DNA from: Candidatus Moraniibacteriota bacterium | GTDB lineage: Bacteria > Patescibacteriota > Minisyncoccia > Moranbacterales > UBA1568 | NCBI GenBank assembly: GCA_037201605.1 | Contig: JBBCGM010000002.1 | Span: 80,697-144,696, forward strand | Direction: 5' to 3' | DNA length: 64,000 nucleotides | Shown here: positions 5,043 through 40,561 of the stretch, one piece after another | Layout of the letters: every line of letters starts with the position of its first letter | Position numbering within the stretch: the stretch's first letter is position 1 | Notes under the pieces: generated by a model | The model's database searches: none | Seen by the model: the letters and a program-made list of their open reading frames with translations, nothing else | Told to the model about the DNA's origin: nothing | Translations under genes and position numbers: made by a program

Positions 5043-5336
5043 TTAGGAGAAGGAGATCTTGATATCTTTGACAACCTCTTCGCCCAACTCACTATTGAGA
5101 TTGGCGAGGAGGTTTTCTTTTTGAAGCATGATCTCGGTACGCCACAAAGAGCTTGGGGACTGAAGATAGAGAGCGCCTTCTGAGAAACGTTTGGCGAGTA
5201 TTTTTTGCGCCCCTTGCTCACCGAAGGCGCCCTTCAATACGCGCGAGAAAAGAAAAAGGATGGTCTGCTCATCAGGTGCAGTTTCTCTCGTATTTATTTT
5301 TCTCTTCTTTCGGAGAAGGTCTGACAGATTATGCAT
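5043..5336 (-). CDS. DciA-like (DUF721) small protein, putative helicase-loading factor
   Basis: Internal ATG at 5336 of ORF 5043..5477 overlaps the dnaN stop by 8 nt. C-terminus ...GALYLQSPSSLWRTEIMLQKENLLANLNSELGEEVVKDIKISF resembles the DUF721 pattern by eye. Confidence 0.5.
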   Translation of the reverse strand: MHNLSDLLRKKRKINTRETAPDEQTILFLFSRVLKGAFGEQGAQKILAKRFSEGALYLQSPSSLWRTEIMLQKENLLANLNSELGEEVVKDIKISFS

Positions 5337-6477
5337 ACTCTTTGCGAATCGGCATAAGGATATAGCGATAGTTCGTTGCCTTCTCTCCAGATTCAGAAAG
5401 GAGCACTGGGGTGGTTGGCGTGTTAGCGGAAAAGGTGATCTCTTCGCTGCGCAGGGCGCTGATCCCCTCCATAACATAGCGGGGATGAAAGACGAAGGTC
5501 ATCGGTTCTTCGCCCTTACTTGCTTTGAGAGGAAAAATACTCGTATTGTCGCCAATTTCTTTGGACTGAGAAAGGATGGTAGCTGTTTCCTTTTTAGGAT
5601 CAAGCACTAAGGCAATCTCGCCGCTTACAAAGGATGAGAGGCCTGAGGCGATCTTGAGAGCGCGGATACAATCATCTTTGCGCAACACGACCTCAAGACC
5701 GAATTTTTCCGGAATAATCTGGTGATAATCGGGGTAACGGCCATTAATGAGACGGGAGACGAGACGGACATTTTCTGCTTCAAAGAAAATTTGGTTTTCC
5801 TCGAGAGCTATCTGAAGAGATTCTGTTTCTGTGCCAATAACGCGCATCAGCTCTTGAATAGTCGCGGTTGGAAGGATAAGTGATGGATTTTCCTCTCGAA
5901 AGTTTTTGTAACCAATTGCTGGTTTTTCCAGCGGAAGAATCTCCTGCCCAAGACGAAAACTATCTGTCGCAGCCACTTCTATTTGCCGCTCACCAAAAGC
6001 TATATGCACACCACTCAGTTCAGGGCGAGATTCATTAGTACTGACACAGAAAAGAAGTCTCGCTAAAGCCGCTTTCAACTCCTGAGCCGGCAAAGAGAAA
6101 GGAAATTCTTTTTTATATTCAGGAATAATCGGGAAATCCTGACCGTCCAGAACCTTGATATTGAGCGTATACCCCCCTGAAGTGAGTTTAAGGTACCCCT
6201 GAGAGGATTCAAGGGTAATAACCTCTCCTTGGGGCAAATTATGCACAAATTGAGCCAGTACCTTGGCTGGAACAGCAAGTTTTCCTTCGGATTCGATTTT
6301 CGCTCCCACACCTACCATAATACCAATCTCTAAATTGGTAGCTGAAAGCTTTAAGCGCCCTTTCTGTGTTTCGAAAAGAATATTACTGAGAATAGGAAGT
6401 GACATCTGCTTCCCAACAACACGATCAAGAGCGAGAAGGGCATTTGAGAGGTTTTCTTGAGTACAAAGAAGTTTCAT
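5329..6477 (-). CDS. dnaN: DNA polymerase III beta sliding clamp
   Basis: 382-aa ORF directly downstream of dnaA. N-terminus MKLLCTQENLSNAL...LPILSNILFE...LKLSATNLE is typical of beta clamps. Confidence 0.9.
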   Translation of the reverse strand: MKLLCTQENLSNALLALDRVVGKQMSLPILSNILFETQKGRLKLSATNLEIGIMVGVGAKIESEGKLAVPAKVLAQFVHNLPQGEVITLESSQGYLKLTSGGYTLNIKVLDGQDFPIIPEYKKEFPFSLPAQELKAALARLLFCVSTNESRPELSGVHIAFGERQIEVAATDSFRLGQEILPLEKPAIGYKNFREENPSLILPTATIQELMRVIGTETESLQIALEENQIFFEAENVRLVSRLINGRYPDYHQIIPEKFGLEVVLRKDDCIRALKIASGLSSFVSGEIALVLDPKKETATILSQSKEIGDNTSIFPLKASKGEEPMTFVFHPRYVMEGISALRSEEITFSANTPTTPVLLSESGEKATNYRYILMPIRKEYA

Positions 6478-6737
6478 AGGGTTTAAGTTAAGTTCTTCTC
6501 TTCTTATTTAAAATTTATTATTACTATTAGGGTAGTGGATATTGGGATAAGTCCCCAGAATGCCTTTGCTAAGGCAATTTTATTGAAGATACTCTGGGGA
6601 AAGAAAAAGGAAAGGAGATGTATTTTTGTACAAAAGTCACTTTTTTAATAGGAGGTTCTTTTTTGTGCACACATCCATACTTTTTGTACAAGGCTTATCC
6701 AATAAAAACCCATCGCTTATACAGGCTTATCCACACT
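6478..6737. promoter_or_regulatory. Candidate oriC segment (dnaA-dnaN intergenic): DnaA boxes plus AT-rich tract
   Basis: Perfect TTATCCACA at 6727-6735. Near-matches are TTATCCAAT (6695-6703), AGTGGATAT (6534-6542) and TGGGATAAG (6543-6551). AT-rich run at about 6500-6530. Confidence 0.6.
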
Positions 6738-8160
6738 TTAGGAGTAGTACAGGCGTTCCTGAACTGTCGAAACCTCCTCATTGACGCGGGAGCTGGTATT
6801 TTTGAGGGCATCAATTTTTTCAAAAGCGTGCAAAGCTGTTGTATGGTCGCGCCCACCTAAAAGCGCGCCGATGCTTGAAAATGGCATCTTGAGTTCTTGA
6901 CGCAGCAGATACATCATGACTTGGCGCGGATAGGAAATCTCCTTTTTTCTTCCCTTCTTGATCAAATCTTCTTTTGAAACGTTAAAGAATTCACCTATCA
7001 CCGAAAAAATATCTTCTGGACGGATATTCTTTTTATTATGCTCGATAATTTCTGAGAGAATCTTCTGGATGCTGGGGATATCCGGAGTAATCTTATGAAA
7101 TTCGGAATAGGCGATAACGCGATTGAGCGCCCCCTCCAATTCACGGATATTCTGATTAATATTCTCTGCGATATATTGAAGGGCCTTTTTCTCTATAAAG
7201 AAGCCCTTTTCAGCCACTTTTGACTCAAGAATAGCTAGGCGCGTCTCGAGACTGGGCCTACTGATATCAGTGATCATGCCGCCCTCAAAGCGTGAGCGCA
7301 GGCGCTCTTCCAGGGTCGCGATAGCCTTCGGTGGACGGTCACTGGAGATGACGATTTGCTTGTTAATTTGGTAGAGGGCATTAAAAATATGGAAAAATTC
7401 GTTCTGCGTCTTTTCTCTGCCCGAAAGGAACTGGACATCATCGATGATCAGGAGGTCCATCTGCTGATAGTACTCTTTAAAGAGGTCGATTTTCTGGTTT
7501 TTTATGGAATCGACTAGTTCTGTCGTAAAGCGCTCTGAAGTGATGTATTTGATACGTTTCTCCGGGTGGCTGAGGCTTACCTCATTTCCGATGGATTGAA
7601 GGAGGTGGGTTTTGCCTAAGCCGACACCTCCATAAATAAAGAGGGGGTTATAGCCTGCTCCGAGATTCTGGGAGACGGCATAGCAGGCCGCTCTCGCTAG
7701 CTCATTGTTTTCGGCTACGATAAAGTTATCAAAAGTGTAGCGAGTATTAAGATTTGATTCGTGGAAAGCTGGCTGAGAGAGGCCGTCCTCCATTCTAAAA
7801 ACAGGCTTTTCCAAGATCTTTTTTCGTACAAAGTCACCTTCTTGGAAGCTCTGAGGACTGTTTTTTTGGGCTCCCTCCTGCTGAATCAAGAGAAGGAGGT
7901 GCACTTGACCGTCGCTCTCCGGAAATAGAACAGCGCATTTCCCGGACCGAGGGGTCAAGGCTCTTAAGGGCCTTGAGAATATGCATGGAATACTTGTTTT
8001 CCAGCCATTCTTTTGCGAAACCATTAGGGACGCCTATAGTGACCACACCTCCCTTGTTTTCCAAAATAGAAGTATTTTTAAACCAGGTGACAAAATTGGC
8101 TTTAGAAAGGGAAAGTTCGATTTGTCCCAGCACAGCTTTCCATAAGTCCTGATTTTCCAT
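6738..8160 (-). CDS. dnaA: Chromosomal replication initiator DnaA (one frame break)
   Basis: N-terminal domain is in ORF 7834..8205 (MENQDLWKAVLGQIELSL...). The AAA+ and DNA-binding domains are in ORF 6738..8024 (GGVGLGKTHLL, LIIDDVQF, HTTALHA). The frames can be joined at the A7 run (T7 on + strand, 7861-7867). Confidence 0.9.
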
Positions 8161-8205
8161 AGCGAAAAGATGATAAAAAGGAGGCGGTGAAAGGCAGTAT
8201 AGCAC

Positions 8206-8264
8206 GGTGGATAAGTGTTCGCGAGGGCTTATTCAAGGCAAAAATGTGCATAAGGCGTGGATAA
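8206..8264. promoter_or_regulatory. Two DnaA-box matches in the dnaA/rpmH divergent intergenic region
   Basis: GGTGGATAA at 8206-8214 and GTGGATAA at 8257-8264, both the complement of TTATCCAC. Confidence 0.5.
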
Positions 8265-8284
8265 GTAGAGAAAGAAGCGAAGAG

Positions 8285-8313
8285 TTGACTTTTTGAGCTA
8301 ATTTCCCTACACT
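8285..8313 (+). promoter_or_regulatory. Sigma70-like promoter upstream of rpmH
   Basis: TTGACT (8285-8290), 17-nt spacer, TACACT (8308-8313). Confidence 0.4.
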
Positions 8314-8340
8314 AGAGAGACTTTGCATTCAAGATCTCCT

Positions 8341-8475
8341 ATGAAGAGAACCTACCAGCCGAAAACCAGGAAAAGAGCGCGCCGCCACGGCTTTCTGAAG
8401 CGTATGAGTACCGTGGGAGGTAAGCGCGTTATTGCCAGCCGGCGTCGTAAGGGCCGAAAAAAGCTCTCCGTTTAG
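8341..8475 (+). CDS. rpmH: 50S ribosomal protein L34
   Basis: Hand translation gives [44 protein letters not shown]. At 44 aa it is below the ORF-track cutoff. Confidence 0.95.
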
Positions 8476-23889: not shown

Positions 23890-24444
23890 ATGCACCAGAA
23901 ACTGATCGCTTTCAACCAGGCCCAGCGCCGTTCGTACCCCCTCGTGCCTGATCTCCAGAGTGGCGATGTGGTGCGTATTTCCCGTAAGATCCGCGAAGGC
24001 GCCAAGGAGCGTATCCAGATCTTCCAAGGCACTATTATCGCTATCAATGGCGGACAGAGCTCTTCCAAGACTATTACGGTCCGCAAGGACTCGTTCGGAA
24101 TAGGCGTCGAACTGGTACTTCCCCTCTCCTCTCCTCAGATTGAAAAGATCGAGTTTGTGAAGCGTACCAAGACCCGCCGCTCCAAGCTTTACTTCGTACG
24201 CGACAAGTCGGTCAAGGTACTCCGCAAGAAGCTCAAAGAAGTCTCTATGAAGGGTATTCTGGCCAGTCTTTCGGCGGCTGCAGTGGCTGAAAAGGAAGCC
24301 GAAGCTGCCCCCGCTCCGGAGTCCGAAGAAGCCTCTTCACCGGAACCTATCGAGGAACCGGTAGAAACTACGGAAGCTCCCGAGGAGTCTCCTGCCGAGG
24401 ACAGCACGCCTGTTGAAACCGAAGAAACCGAGAAAGCGGCTTAA
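23890..24444 (+). CDS. rplS: 50S ribosomal protein L19 with acidic C-terminal tail of about 70 aa
   Basis: MHQKLIAFNQAQ...PDLQSGDVVRISRKIREGAKERIQIFQGTIIAINGG...RRSKLYFVRD, then an E/P/A-rich tail. Confidence 0.9.
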   Translation: MHQKLIAFNQAQRRSYPLVPDLQSGDVVRISRKIREGAKERIQIFQGTIIAINGGQSSSKTITVRKDSFGIGVELVLPLSSPQIEKIEFVKRTKTRRSKLYFVRDKSVKVLRKKLKEVSMKGILASLSAAAVAEKEAEAAPAPESEEASSPEPIEEPVETTEAPEESPAEDSTPVETEETEKAA

Positions 24445-24460
24445 TCACGCTTTCCCACCT

Positions 24461-24544
24461 GCCCAGGTGGCGGAATTGGTATACGCGCTAGCTTGAGGTG
24501 CTAGTTCCCGCAAGGGATTGGAGGTTCGAGTCCTCTCTTGGGCA
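24461..24544 (+). tRNA. tRNA-Leu (anticodon GAG)
   Basis: Acceptor GCCCAGG/CTTGGGC, anticodon arm CTAGC-TTGAGGT-GCTAG, long variable arm, T-loop GGTTCGAGTCC. Confidence 0.85.
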
Positions 24545-24560
24545 CACACAGAAGTACATT

Positions 24561-24634
24561 GCACGCTTAGCTCAGTTGGTTAGAGCATCTCGTTTACACC
24601 GAGAGGGTCCAAGGTTCGAGTCCTTGAGCGTGCA
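24561..24634 (+). tRNA. tRNA-Val (anticodon TAC)
   Basis: Acceptor GCACGCT/AGCGTGC, anticodon arm TCTCG-TTTACAC-CGAGA, T-loop GGTTCGAGTCC. Confidence 0.9.
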
Positions 24635-24646
24635 CAGGTCCCTTTC

Positions 24647-24721
<75 letters not shown>

Positions 24722-24796
24722 GCGACAGGTTAAAAAGAGTGTCTAAGTGGTGTATAAGTGGTTTATACCCCTAATATCCACTAAAATAGGGCTACA

Positions 24797-25024
24797 GGGA
24801 CTGTATCCGCCAGCTGGCGGAGGTAAGAGCAGGCGGCTCATAACCGCTTGGTCGTTGGCCCGCCCCGTGCCAAAATTGACATCATAGATTTAGGGTCCGT
24901 AGCTCAGCGGTAAGAGCAGGCGGCTCATAACCGCTTGGTCGTTGGTTCGAATCCAACCGGACCCACTGACAGGACGGTTAGGTAATGTCAATTTTGGTAC
25001 GGGGTGAAAATCCAACCAGTCCCA
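24797..25024 (+). other. tRNA-like outer shell (anticodon CAT) split at its T-loop position by a 146-nt hairpin-ended insert carrying a complete tRNA(CAT)
   Basis: The 5' part (24797-24858) and 3' part (25005-25024) give acceptor GGGACTG/CAGTCCC and T stem GTTGG/CCAAC. A 35-nt stretch spanning the 3' part of the D arm, the anticodon arm, the variable region and the 5' strand of the T stem is identical to the inner tRNA. The insert is bounded by inverted repeats 24863-24882 and 24985-25004. Confidence 0.6.
24893..24965 (+). tRNA. tRNA with anticodon CAT (elongator Met or Ile2; not an initiator type)
   Basis: GGGTCCG/CGGACCC acceptor, D arm GCTC-AGCGGTAA-GAGC, anticodon arm GGCGG-CTCATAA-CCGCT, T arm GTTGG-TTCGAAT-CCAAC. 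G1-C72 is paired. Confidence 0.9.
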
Positions 25025-25037
25025 CTGTCAGTAGAAA

Positions 25038-25108
25038 GCGGCTATCGTATACTGGTATTATACTACCTTGCCAAGGTAGGGAAACGGGTTCGATTCCCGT
25101 TAGCCGCT
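25038..25108 (+). tRNA. tRNA-Gly (anticodon GCC)
   Basis: Acceptor GCGGCTA/TAGCCGC, anticodon arm CTACC-TTGCCAA-GGTAG, T arm ACGGG-TTCGATT-CCCGT. The D-arm parse is less certain. Confidence 0.75.
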
Positions 25109-25298
25109 CACAAAGAGCAGAGACCCGGCTTCGTGCCGGGCTTTGCTTTTTTGGCTAACGGGAATCGAACGGGAAAGGGGTCGGGAAAACGGGAGTTTTC
25201 CCGTAAGCGGAGAGCAGCGAGTCTGCGAGCGCTGAGAACCGAGGGGTTCTCAGAGCGCAGGCCATAGGCCGAGCAGAGAGATCTCCCGTTAGCCGCTC
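25086..25298. repeat. Direct and inverted partial copies of the tRNA-Gly 3' end (att-like scars)
   Basis: TCCCGTTAGCCGCTCA occurs at 25095-25110 and again at 25283-25298. An inverted copy GGCTAACGGGAATCGAAC lies at 25153-25170, and a degenerate copy CCCGTAAGCGG at about 25199-25210. Confidence 0.6.
25116..25152 (+). terminator. Intrinsic terminator after the tRNA cluster
   Basis: Stem CCCGGC-ttcgt-GCCGGG with flanking AGCAGAG/CTTTGCT, followed by TTTTTT. Confidence 0.6.
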
Positions 25299-25384
25299 AG
25301 GAAACAAGGGACTCCCTGTGAAGGGAGTTTTTTGATTCTTTGAAATACAAAAGTAAAGAAGGTCGTTATGCTAGAATTTAAGGT

Positions 25385-25891
25385 ATGAACCTGAAACTTA
25401 ATGTAAAGCCATTTCAAGAAACTCTTAATGCTGGGTATTGTGGCCCAGCCTCTTTGAAGATTGTCCTCGGCTATTATGGGCTTGATGTATCCGAAGAAGA
25501 GCTCGCGCAGAAAACAGGAGCAACAAAAGACCTGGGTACGACCGCAGAAAACTTGAAAAGAGCAGCTGAAGCATTTGGTTTTCAGGTGGAGATCCATGAT
25601 AATTGCGAACTTCAAGATATTGAAAAGTGGCTCGAGAAAAAAGTGCCGATTATTGTCGATTGGTTTACGGCAGGACGAAGTGACTACGAGCCTGATATCG
25701 CTTCTGTTGACGGGCATTATTCTGTAGTGAGCGGAATAGATGATACTCATATTTATCTCCAAGATCCAGAACTCGGCACAGAAAGAAAGATGCAGCGGGA
25801 AGTCTTCAATCGTGTCTGGTTTGATTTTTTAGGAGAACTTATTAAACCGGATGAGCTTGTCATTCGACAGCTTGTAGCGGTTTATAGGTAA
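25385..25891 (+). CDS. Peptidase C39-like papain-fold cysteine protease (stand-alone)
   Basis: LNAGYCGPASLKIVLGYYG (catalytic Cys context) and ...VDGHYSVVSGIDDTHIYLQDP (His). No ABC transporter domain. Confidence 0.65.
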   Translation: MNLKLNVKPFQETLNAGYCGPASLKIVLGYYGLDVSEEELAQKTGATKDLGTTAENLKRAAEAFGFQVEIHDNCELQDIEKWLEKKVPIIVDWFTAGRSDYEPDIASVDGHYSVVSGIDDTHIYLQDPELGTERKMQREVFNRVWFDFLGELIKPDELVIRQLVAVYR

Positions 25892-37726: not shown

Positions 37727-39561
37727 TTAGGCTACCGCTCCGGCTTTTTGCCCGACGATCAGATCGAACTCTTCTTTTTCAAGCGTTTCTTTTTCAAGAA
37801 GCGTCTTGGCGAGCCTATTAAGTACTTCGCGTTTTTCATTCAGGATTTCCGTCGCTTTCCTTGAAAGCATCGTCAATGAGTCGCGACACTTCGCGGTCAA
37901 TGCTCTCGGCAGTCGTTTCGGAATAGTTGCGTTCCTCGTGCATCTCGCGGCCCAAGAAGACCATTTCTTCCTTTTTGCCAAAGGTGCGCGCCCCCAGTCC
38001 GCTCATGCCGTAGCGCGTCACCATGTTGCGTGCCATTTGGGTGGCGCGCTCCAGATCGTTTGAGGGACCGGTAGTAATGTCGCCAAAGACGAGCTTTTTC
38101 TGAAGCGTAGCCGCCGAGCAGCACGGCCAGTTCATCGTAGAATTAGATTGCGGGAATGGAGCGTCTTGTCTTCCTCCGGTACGGCCATAGTGTAGCCTCC
38201 GGCATGCCCGCGTGAAATGATCGAGATCTTGTGGACCGGATCAGCATGTTCGAGACTGGCGCCGACGAGCGCGTGCCCGCCTTCGTGATAGGCAACGATC
38301 TCTCGTTCTTTAGCATTAATGGCGCGATTGCGGCGTTCGGGACCGAGGAGTACCTTTTCGATCGACTCAGCGAGATCTGCCATTTCGATTTCCTTCTTGT
38401 CACGGGCGCGTGGCAAGAATAGCTCCTTCGTTGAGCAGGTTGGCGAGGTCCGCGCCGAGAAGCCTGGCGTGCGGGCCGCGATACGGCGCAGGTCAACATT
38501 TTTCGCCAGGGGCTTGTTCTTGGTGTGGATCTTGAGGATCTTCTCTCGGTCGTTAATGTCGGGCAGGTCGAGCGTGACGCGCCGATCAAAACGTCCGGGA
38601 CGCAGAAGTGCCGGGTCGAGTACGTCCGGCCGGTTGGTAGCAGCGATCACGATTACGTGCGTGTTGGTTTCAAAGCCGTCCATCTCGACCAGGATCTGGT
38701 TCAGGGTCTGCTCGCGTTCATCGTGTCCGCCGCCCAGTCCTGCACCGCGGTGCCTTCCGACGGCATCGATTTCGTCAATAAAGACAATCGAAGGCGCGTT
38801 TTTCTTGGCTTGTTTGAAGAGGTCTCGCACGCGGCTTGCTCCTACGCCGACGAACATCTCGACGAATTCTGATCCGCTGATATTGAAGAAGGGAACGCCC
38901 GCTTCACCCGCTACCGCTTTGGCCATAAGAGTCTTGCCGGTGCCGGGCGAACCGAGCATGAGTACGCCCTTAGGAATTTTGGCGCCCATCAAGAGGAACT
39001 TCTTCGGCTCTTTCAAAAGTCCACTACTTCTTCGAGTTCCAGTTTGGCTTCTTCGCTCCCGGCAACATCCTTGAAGGTGATGCGCTTGCGCTTCTCTTTG
39101 GGATCCAGAATGCGAGCCCGGCTCAAACCGAAGGAGAGCGCCTGGGCATTGCCACGGCTCGCTTGGCGGAACATGAACCACAGGAAGACAGAGATGATGA
39201 GGACCGGCAGGAGGAAAGGAAGAAGGGTTGCGAACCAGAAAGCGGCGCCCGAGGGTTCTTTGACCGTGATGGCGACTGCGGCGAGCTTGTCTTTCTCTGT
39301 TCCGTAATTGGCAAGCGTTTCCGTAAGGGAAGCCTCGTTTTCTTTGCTTGCTTTGGCGGTCACGCCGTCATTTTTGGTGATGGTGAGGGCATTTCCCTCT
39401 ACCACGATGCTTTGTACCTGGCCCTGATTGATCTGAGAAACGAGTTCTGACAGAGAAATATTTTCAGGTTTCTTCTCGGGTACCTGGTAGAGCAGGGCAA
39501 TACCGGCACAGAGGAAGAGGACGAGAATCCAAGGAGAGAGGTTTTTGGTCGTTTTTTGCAT
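37727..39561 (-). CDS. ftsH: ATP-dependent zinc metalloprotease FtsH (about 5 frame breaks)
   Basis: Pieces 39013..39582, 38132..39181, 37836..38135 and 37727..37981 carry Walker A GSPGTGKT, Walker [33 protein letters not shown] and Zn motif HEGGHA. One junction is DF|LKEPKKF at the T4 run (A4 on + strand, 39015-39018). Confidence 0.9.
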
Positions 39562-39578: not shown

Positions 39579-40513
39579 TCACGTTTTGAGCAGTCTCACT
39601 TTATCACCTTTCTGTTCCAATAACAACCCGAAAAAGGCGACTTTCCGGTTTTTCGCCTTCACTCTCCGATAAGGGCTTTTTCCGTCTCGAGCAAAGCGCT
39701 TTTGGGCAGGGCTCGCGGGAGCATCTCTCCCGAGAGCAGGCGCAGAAAAGCCAACCTTTTCGGTTTTCTTGAGCTCCCGGAAGGCTTTTCTGGAAAAAGT
39801 AAGCGCTTCTTTCTCTGAAGAGATGAGCGGCCAGAGGGTCCTTGTATGATGCGTCTGCTCTTCGGCGAGCGTCTCCGCAGTACGAGCGAGCAAGGCAACG
39901 ATACCGGGCTGGTAGTCTTTGGCCAAGAGCGGCAAGAGGTCGTGCCTCAGGCGATTTCTCAGAAAATGGCGGTTGAGATTGCTCTCATCATCGTGAAAGG
40001 GGAGACCGAGGGCTTGTGCCGCTTTCTCAAGTTCGTCTTGGGTCGCGAAGAGAAGAGGTCGGATAACAGAGGCATTTTTCGGCTGCATGCCCGAGAGACC
40101 TGTTCGTCCCGTCCCCGCGCAGCAGGCGCAGGAGAAAAGTCTCCGCCTGATCTTGCTGGTGATGTGCTACGGCAACTGCTGACAACCCTCGCTTTTTCTG
40201 CAGTTTTTCAAAAAACGCATAGCGTCGCTCCCGGAGACGTTTCTTCTAGATTTTGCGTGCCGCGCACGCGCACCTGCAGAACATGGTAGGGGAGGCCGAA
40301 CTTTTGCGCAGTGCTTTGCACCAGGCGCTCGTCACTTTGGCTTGCCTTACCGCGCAGATGGTAATTGACATGCGCTACTTCCAGAAAAAGACTCTCTTTG
40401 GGAGCGACATAGCTGAGGAGTGCCAGAAGCAGCATGCTGTCCCGACCGCCAGAGACAGCTACGAGCAAGCGATCATTTTTTCTGCCAGAGTTCGTGGCGC
40501 TTGGCAAAAGCAC
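39579..40513 (-). CDS. tilS: tRNA(Ile)-lysidine synthase TilS (at least 2 frame breaks)
   Basis: The N-terminal piece has the PP-loop LLVAVSGGRDS. The middle frame reads RYAFFEKL...VAVAHHQQDQAETFLLRLLRG. The C-terminal piece has IRPLL...LPFHDDESN. Confidence 0.85.
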
Positions 40514-40561
40514 GCATTTTTTTTAGCCAGCGTGCGTGCGGGGTAGGGCAGACTTTTCGTA

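Follow-up and report, generated by a model that had tools for sequence, protein, structure and literature searches.

The 64,000-nucleotide (nt) stretch analysed here, hereafter the window, lies on contig JBBCGM010000002.1 of assembly GCA_037201605.1, assigned to a Candidatus Moraniibacteriota bacterium. Inside it is an array of transfer RNA (tRNA) genes in the order tRNA-Leu(GAG), Val(TAC), Phe, CAT, and Gly(GCC), and none of these genes encodes the CCA end. A terminator was located at 25124-25150, and the array is probably transcribed as a single precursor ending there. At the CAT position of the array we observed a nested locus of 228 nt (24797-25024), in which one tRNA gene is split in its T-loop by an insert of 146 nt; this insert has inverted-repeat ends, and its cargo is an intact copy of the same tRNA. 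All coordinates are window positions and refer to the plus strand unless stated otherwise.

Anatomy and identity of the nested genes

The inner gene (24893-24965) has the acceptor stem GGGTCCG/CGGACCC and the anticodon CAT. ARAGORN detected it and the Rfam tRNA model matched it with 72.9 bits, which confirms the initial annotation, where this segment had been read as a canonical tRNA(CAT). It is presumed to be the functional gene. A 10-nt leader, CATAGATTTA (24883-24892), precedes it, and a 19-nt trailer that begins with CTGACAG (24966-24984) follows it. Outside the leader and the trailer lie the inverted-repeat arms, CCCCGTGCCAAAATTGACAT on the left (24863-24882) and ATGTCAATTTTGGTACGGGG on the right (24985-25004). 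As had been described, the arms are complementary at 19 of 20 positions and the odd position would be a G-U pair in the RNA of the plus strand. In 100 dinucleotide shuffles of the window, such an arm pair occurred in none. A promoter in the left arm was considered and rejected: TTGACA is present there, with no usable -10 element after it.

The outer gene surrounds this insert on both sides. Its 5' acceptor strand GGGACTG with the following TA (24797-24805, positions 1-9 of the resident tRNA-Ile2 gene) showed perfect pairing with 25017-25023. In place of the 5' half of the D arm stands a 16-nt perfect palindrome, TCCGCCAGCTGGCGGA (24806-24821), which forms a 6-bp hairpin in the predicted folds and occurs exactly nowhere else within the window. 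An origin of this palindrome from tRNA-Leu was rejected, as a match of 11/12 is no more than chance would give in a region of 1.2 kb. The outer core (24822-24858) comprises G18G19, the 3' strand of the D stem, the anticodon arm (CAT), the variable region, and the 5' strand of the T stem, and it is an exact copy of 24909-24945. The identical stretch had been noticed before and is real, but it measures 37 nt and not the 35 nt claimed.

The left junction CCCG (24859-24862) connects the T-stem 5' strand to the left arm, and its last two bases lengthen the arm helix to 22 bp in the fold. The right junction TGAAAAT (25005-25011), a non-canonical remnant of the outer T loop, follows the right arm. 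Then come the T-stem 3' strand CCAAC, the acceptor 3' strand CAGTCCC, and A73 (25012-25024), followed by the outer trailer CTGTCAG (25025-25031), which is 6/7 identical to the start of the inner trailer. When the outer flanks (24797-24858 and 25005-25024) are joined, they form an acceptor stem of 7 bp without a mismatch, GGGACTG/CAGTCCC, and a 5-bp T stem, GTTGG/CCAAC. Both stems were present in the sequence as first reported, as were the D-arm hairpin, the T-loop TGAAAAT, and CTGNCAG after both 3' ends (CTGACAG for the inner gene and CTGTCAG for the outer). A motif in tandem, GTGTCTAAGTG/GTGTATAAGTG, was seen at 24739-24760, upstream of where the outer gene begins; it is a possible promoter element of the -10 type within the array.

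Judged by their sequences, the inner and the outer copy are both tRNA-Ile2 of the lysidine type and not tRNA-Met. The 27-nt core of the inner gene, GGCGRCTCATAAYCGCTTGGTCGTTGG, is common to enterobacterial tRNA-Ile2 genes, and the core GGCGGCTCATAACCGCTTGGTCGTTGG is that of the enterobacterial and Saccharibacteria tRNA-Ile2 genes. The best Escherichia coli matches of the CAT tRNA showed 87-89% identity and are annotated as tRNA-Ile. The anticodon arms of the two copies are identical; the outer copy is therefore a second, redundant Ile2 copy and not a missing CAU species. From the presence of tilS in the window, a tRNA-Ile2 had been expected somewhere in the genome; this was correct, and the nested gene is itself that tRNA-Ile2.

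The tilS gene is present as stated, though it reads in two frames on the minus strand (40208-40522 and 39579-40166), which cover positions 1-75 and 122-189 of the TilS_N profile. The adjoining ftsH gene (37836-39367, minus strand) likewise consists of two overlapping open reading frames, covering profile positions 180-471 and 486-568. Either the sequence contains errors here, or two essential genes next to each other carry genuine frameshifts, and on account of these breaks single-base details need caution.

The resident gene and the outer shell

The locus was compared with nine related syntenic loci, designated L001, L002/L003, L004, L017, L094, L105, L135, L136, and L138. In these loci the order is conserved: ribonucleotide reductase, RluA-family synthase, and rplS are followed by the array Leu-Val-Phe-CAT-Gly. 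One uninterrupted tRNA-Ile2 gene was found at the array position in 9/9 loci, and the nested architecture was absent from all nine arrays. Two features that the inner and the outer gene have in common, the GGTAAGAGC D loop and the CTGNCAG trailer, were missing in every one of these relatives. By the identity of their L19 proteins to that of the window (75-80%), the relatives are all about equally distant. A closer relative was sought through L19, where the next best match was 82% identical and its contigs were too short to reach the tRNA-Ile2 gene, and through the downstream C39 peptidase, where the next best match was 70% identical and not syntenic; neither route yielded one.

The spacing of the array shows which of the two copies is the resident one. 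Upstream of the tRNA-Ile2 gene, a GTGTATAAG motif is conserved in L094, L105, and L136. The 5' end of the outer gene lies about 40 nt downstream of this motif, and its 3' end is 13 nt from tRNA-Gly, compared with 8-14 nt in L094, L105, L136, and L138; both distances agree with the plain genes of these four relatives. For the inner gene, the corresponding distances are 136 nt and 72 nt. This result indicates that the outer halves are the ancestral gene and that the segment from 24859 to about 25011 was inserted.

Both acceptor stems of the nested locus were also found in relatives. The outer form, GGGACTG/CAGTCCC, occurs in L001, L105, L136, and L138, and the inner form, GGGTCCG/CGGACCC, in L004, L017, L094, and L135; the L094 gene differs from the inner gene at 2 nt. 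On this comparison, the two compensated base-pair differences between the inner and the outer copy are natural alleles of one gene and not decay. As both acceptor types are natural in the relatives, the perfect outer stem is explained without selection on the shell.

The same two alleles have to be considered when the assembly is judged. The assembler could have woven two co-existing strains, one with each acceptor type, into a chimeric path, and several observations agree with this: the 37-nt exact repeat is longer than short k-mers, the Logan contigs built from the same run break off near 24545 and resume near 25175, leaving nothing independent that covers the nested locus, and the two frames of tilS and of ftsH hint at local sequence errors. 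However, a chimera of strains cannot make the non-tRNA junctions or the 20-nt arms, and for this reason we rate an assembly artefact as unlikely. The arms also differ at one base, unlike a fold-back artefact, and the 346-kb contig is collinear with the relatives on both sides.

The outer shell failed as a tRNA in both detectors applied to it. ARAGORN found no tRNA in the joined outer halves in its standard, intron, or relaxed modes, and the Rfam tRNA covariance model gave no match to the outer 5' part (24797-24870) at E <= 10. What the joined halves retain are the two stems, acceptor (7 bp) and T (5 bp), and an anticodon arm that does not differ from the inner one. The contacts between the D loop and the T loop that make up the elbow are an established part of tRNA structure, and these contacts cannot form in the shell because the 5' strand of the D stem and T54-Psi55-C56 are both lost.

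The initial annotation had drawn the whole unit as a folded RNA and had offered, as one of three options, an RNA-level device reminiscent of archaeal split or intron-containing tRNAs. The arm helix would clamp the outer halves while RNase P and RNase Z excise the inner tRNA, and the outcome would be a two-piece tRNA-like RNA with its own function or a shell that serves as a processing scaffold for the inner tRNA. The predicted fold of the 228-nt RNA has the shape drawn there and is very stable (-117.6 kcal/mol, z = -9.4 against shuffles). Its arm helix of 20 bp is extendable to 22 bp. The two outer pieces left after removal of the inner tRNA are predicted to remain paired (-85.2 kcal/mol), the sole mismatch of the arms is G-U compatible on the transcribed strand, and the shell has acceptor and T stems without a mismatch. 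These perfect stems are nevertheless accounted for by descent from a working allele.

At the predicted junction, the 5-bp T stem is followed by an asymmetric internal loop and then by the 20-22 bp helix. The loop measures 2-4 by 5-7 nt, with CC or CCCG opposite AAAAT or TGAAAAT, and the bulge-helix-bulge motif (3-nt bulge, 4-bp helix, 3-nt bulge) was absent at the junctions in the predicted structure. Bacteria are not known to possess the pathway of bulge-helix-bulge recognition and splicing endonuclease. The architecture recurred in 0/9 related arrays, and a gapped search of the JGI metagenomes for two tRNA-Ile2 cores 45-75 nt apart found none. The shell, rejected by both detectors and lacking the elements of the elbow, would moreover duplicate the anticodon arm of the inner tRNA and supply nothing new. 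With no relative of the same architecture and no bulge-helix-bulge, we regard the RNA-device option as unsupported and very improbable. Equally remote is its further form, a "tRNA within a tRNA", in which a two-piece helix-clamped CAU RNA would act as a decoy or regulator of TilS or IleRS, or as a maturation scaffold.

Disrupted tRNA genes of Archaea include non-canonical introns, split tRNAs, and a fragment together with an intact copy beside a mobile element (PMC3293823). The nested locus resembles them in its break at a non-anticodon position, in the fragment beside an intact copy, and in that a mobile element has been proposed as the cause. It differs from them in that they are repaired at the RNA level through the bulge-helix-bulge and the splicing endonuclease, a motif that the nested locus lacks.

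A group I intron was also looked for, and the Intron_gpI model showed no match in 24400-25400 at E <= 10. The same model detected a real intron, with 64.6 bits, in the tRNA-Phe gene of L002. That intron interrupts the anticodon loop and lies at 7441-7742 in L002 and L003, two ENA assemblies of one Moranbacterium; it is missing from the near-identical third assembly L004 (7474-7546), a presence/absence polymorphism.

Origin of the insert

The explanation that we favour, with a probability of roughly 0.55, is that an insert with palindromic ends split the resident tRNA-Ile2 gene and brought its own replacement, leaving a scar at the DNA level. The resident single-copy tRNA-Ile2(CAU) gene, which is the outer shell, would have been cut in its T-loop by the 146-nt DNA, for which we infer a foreign origin. 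The ends of the insert would be the two halves of a palindromic site, seen now as the 20-nt arms, and its cargo a complete tRNA-Ile2 of a closely related allele. Most probably, site-specific recombination would have joined the palindromic site of the incoming DNA to the T arm, which is palindromic by nature, in the manner of a serine recombinase. The half-sites would thereby end as inverted repeats against the T-stem halves with no target duplication, each junction combining half of the target with half of the donor site. The remainder of the element would have been lost later, or may never have existed. Because such an insertion destroys its target, in a genome with a single tRNA-Ile2 only an insert with a whole replacement gene would survive, which would explain the cargo.

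The junctions were inspected with this route in mind. Joined to the left arm, the right arm gives a near-perfect 42-nt palindrome, and the arms abut the T-stem halves GTTGG and CCAAC without direct duplication or long identity. This pattern fits the attL/attR products of a serine recombinase, in which palindromic attP halves stand against dyad-symmetric attB halves. When the arms are taken as 20 nt, the central dinucleotide is CG at the left junction and TG at the right junction. In L136, a large serine recombinase of 534 amino acids and a primase lie right after the same tRNA array. By analogy with this enzyme, with the islands of Dehalococcoides, and with T-loop breaks in Saccharibacteria (described below), the serine-recombinase route is plausible.

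In Dehalococcoides, islands with a serine recombinase insert centrally in the T-loop of transfer-messenger RNA (PMC3146451). These islands and the nested locus are alike in that the target is the T-loop centre of an essential single-copy tRNA-like gene, in that the element brings sequence preserving the function of the gene, and in that a large serine recombinase lies beside the same tRNA array in the relative L136. The islands are many kilobases long and encode their recombinase, whereas the insert has 146 nt and encodes no protein. In the islands, the gene is restored by a 20-bp copy of its 3' end, which leaves a direct repeat; the nested locus instead has inverted-repeat ends and a whole replacement gene.

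Integration into tRNA genes by tyrosine integrases is another known process with a similar result. Here too the target is a tRNA gene, and a degenerate direct copy of the 3' part with its trailer lies downstream of an intact gene; in the nested locus, 24950-24972 and 25009-25031 are 20/23 identical. The nested locus differs in having also a 5' fragment upstream, and its intact gene has its own matching acceptor strands. Its junctions have no common overlap sequence, so that the classical model does not produce the observed order. A classical att duplication was rejected for a further reason: excision across either direct repeat would leave mismatched acceptor strands.

The first of the three options offered earlier was a hairpin-ended mini-element inserted in a paralogous tRNA gene, and the position of the outer gene and the comparison with relatives support it best. 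Miniature inverted-repeat transposable elements (MITEs) and other palindromic mini-elements, such as the Rickettsia palindromic elements, are about 150 nt long, have hairpin-forming terminal inverted repeats, and occur inside genes. The insert is like them in its size, in its terminal inverted repeats, and in its place within a gene. Unlike MITEs, it has no target-site duplication, as the flanks GTTGGCCCG (left) and TGAAAATCC (right) contain no direct repeat; no other copy of it was found, and its cargo is a tRNA gene. In none of the collections searched did the arms prove to be a repeated MITE.

The search for further copies was carried out at several levels. An exact search with the 20-nt arm found no copy in 185,579 GTDB species genomes, JGI metagenome contigs, or IMG/VR, no further copy with <=3 mismatches was present in the window, and the flanks of the insert had no other copy in the window. 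When viral contigs were searched with the tRNA-Ile2 core, only enterobacterial prophage borders were retrieved, and no phage of the candidate phyla radiation (CPR) carrying the gene.

Several points weigh against the insertion of a mobile element. As the arms were found nowhere else in these searches, no mobile family is demonstrated. No recombinase or transposase was found in the window, where tblastn with the L136 enzyme was the only search. Neither a clean 7-nt T loop nor a shared crossover dinucleotide can be rebuilt from CCCG and TGAAAAT. The insert, at 146 nt, is very small, and for exactly the tRNA and both arms to remain, either the element must have been very small from the outset or an internal deletion must by luck have spared them. 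The shared GGTAAGAGC D loop and CTGNCAG trailer require that the donor was very close or a paralogue in the same genome, or that gene conversion took place. Finally, the locus is held by one assembly of one sample only.

The lack of a recombinase match in the window, the loop that cannot be rebuilt, the small insert, and the shared features make a local rearrangement without any mobile element a serious rival, which we regard as possible but somewhat doubtful. Two tRNA-Ile2 alleles or tandem paralogues would have been joined by illegitimate recombination or template switching, and template switching during replication would also have made the inverted repeat; the source would be an old duplication or DNA acquired from a sister strain, and the outer halves would still be a dead gene. 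The D loop and trailer, common to both copies and found in none of the nine relatives, agree with a local source. So do the core and its surroundings, with 0 differences in the 37-nt core compared with 5 in 29 alignable flanking positions, and the arms, which are single-copy everywhere searched. The D arm has acquired a second palindrome, and the neighbouring tRNA-Gly has an 18/18 inverted copy of its 3' part, so that events forming palindromes have recurred in the array. However, no simple series of duplications and inversions yields the order of 5' half, arm, whole gene, arm, and 3' half. Beyond 7 nt, the two copies have unlike leaders and trailers, and neither arm has a recognisable local source. 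The option of a recombination scar between two CAU tRNA genes, which had been listed second, remains as a variant of the same DNA-level story.

A plain tandem duplication was tried as a separate candidate and rejected. No relationship exists between the sequences that follow the two cores, and beyond CTGNCAG the leaders and trailers match at chance level.

If the locus arose by DNA insertion, the inner cargo gene would now supply the essential lysidine-dependent decoder of AUA, and the outer halves would be a pseudogene whose D arm has since been lost to the palindrome. In the array transcript, the arms would fold into the 20-22 bp helix, and we infer that RNase P and RNase Z release the inner tRNA, perhaps after RNase III has cut the helix. 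The outer halves would be by-products of this processing, and there is no sign of their use. For annotation, the CAT tRNA should read Ile2 and not Met, and the outer halves are to be marked as a pseudogene.

Related tRNA-linked features and the meaning of the locus

T-loop breaks of tRNA-Ile2 were also seen in Saccharibacteria. Two contigs, L122 (7492-7705) and L014 (451-578), contain an intact tRNA-Ile2 gene followed within 5-12 nt by a 5'-truncated second copy. In L122, the T-loop of the truncated copy is interrupted after TTC by 79 nt, with TTC on both sides, and a gene for a large serine recombinase is located some 850 nt upstream. The fragment in L014 ends at the same TTC and is followed by at least 7 kb of other DNA; the two junctions are loosely similar. 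In addition, seven Saccharibacteria contigs end inside tRNA-Ile2.

The recombinase of L136 (GCA_016182385.1) belongs to a segment at 5084-8444, directly after tRNA-Gly, that holds the recombinase, an unknown protein of 448 amino acids, and a DnaG-type primase. The recombinase has the domains Resolvase, Recombinase, and Zn_ribbon_recom. Other relatives have housekeeping genes at this place, and the segment is probably an integrated element.

Adjoining the nested locus, tRNA-Gly is a second tRNA with extra pieces. The part comprising its T-loop, T-stem, and acceptor 3' strand has an 18/18 inverted copy 47 nt downstream, beyond the terminator (25088-25105 and 25153-25170), and its 3' end has a 16-nt exact direct repeat 189 nt downstream (25095-25110 and 25284-25299).

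A conserved structured non-coding element of about 110-145 nt was observed after a tRNA gene in four Moranbacteria. Its copies lie at 25153-25299 in the window, at 5169-5281 in L001, at 6096-6230 on the minus strand in L094, and at 3942-4084 in L105; in the window and L001 the element follows tRNA-Gly, and in L094 and L105 it follows tRNA-Phe. The element opens with the T-loop-to-acceptor part of the adjoining tRNA in inverted orientation, continues with a core of GGAAAGGGGTCGGGAAAAC, GTTTTCCCGTTTGGGGTGACCCG, a hairpin, and AGAGCGCAG, and closes with the tRNA 3' end (16, 27, or 47 nt) repeated directly. Its hairpins showed compensatory changes at 11/32 pairs. It had no Rfam match, a covariance model built from it matched only the four seeds, and its 17-nt core gave one chance match in the viral contigs. 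Candidates for its nature are a miniature integrative element and an unknown RNA. The element was also considered as an explanation of the nested locus and rejected, as the two have no sequence in common.

Upstream of the array, the L19 gene (23893-24444) encodes a C-terminal extension of about 55 residues that is acidic and rich in Glu, Pro, and Ala, giving a protein of 184 amino acids compared with 139-156 in most relatives.

The nested locus is best read as a variant of the known disruption of tRNA genes by integrating DNA, and not as a bacterial counterpart of the archaeal split tRNAs. Taken with the T-loop breaks of Saccharibacteria, it marks tRNA-Ile2 as a possible hot spot of integration throughout the CPR. 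Should the scar at the DNA level be the right account, the disruption of the T-loop of an essential single-copy tRNA gene was survivable in a minimal CPR genome only through a complete replacement carried by the incoming DNA, unlike the usual duplication of the 3' end. The locus would then offer a concrete example, from a bacterium, of the way in which tRNA genes become fragmented, which until now has been treated chiefly in Archaea.

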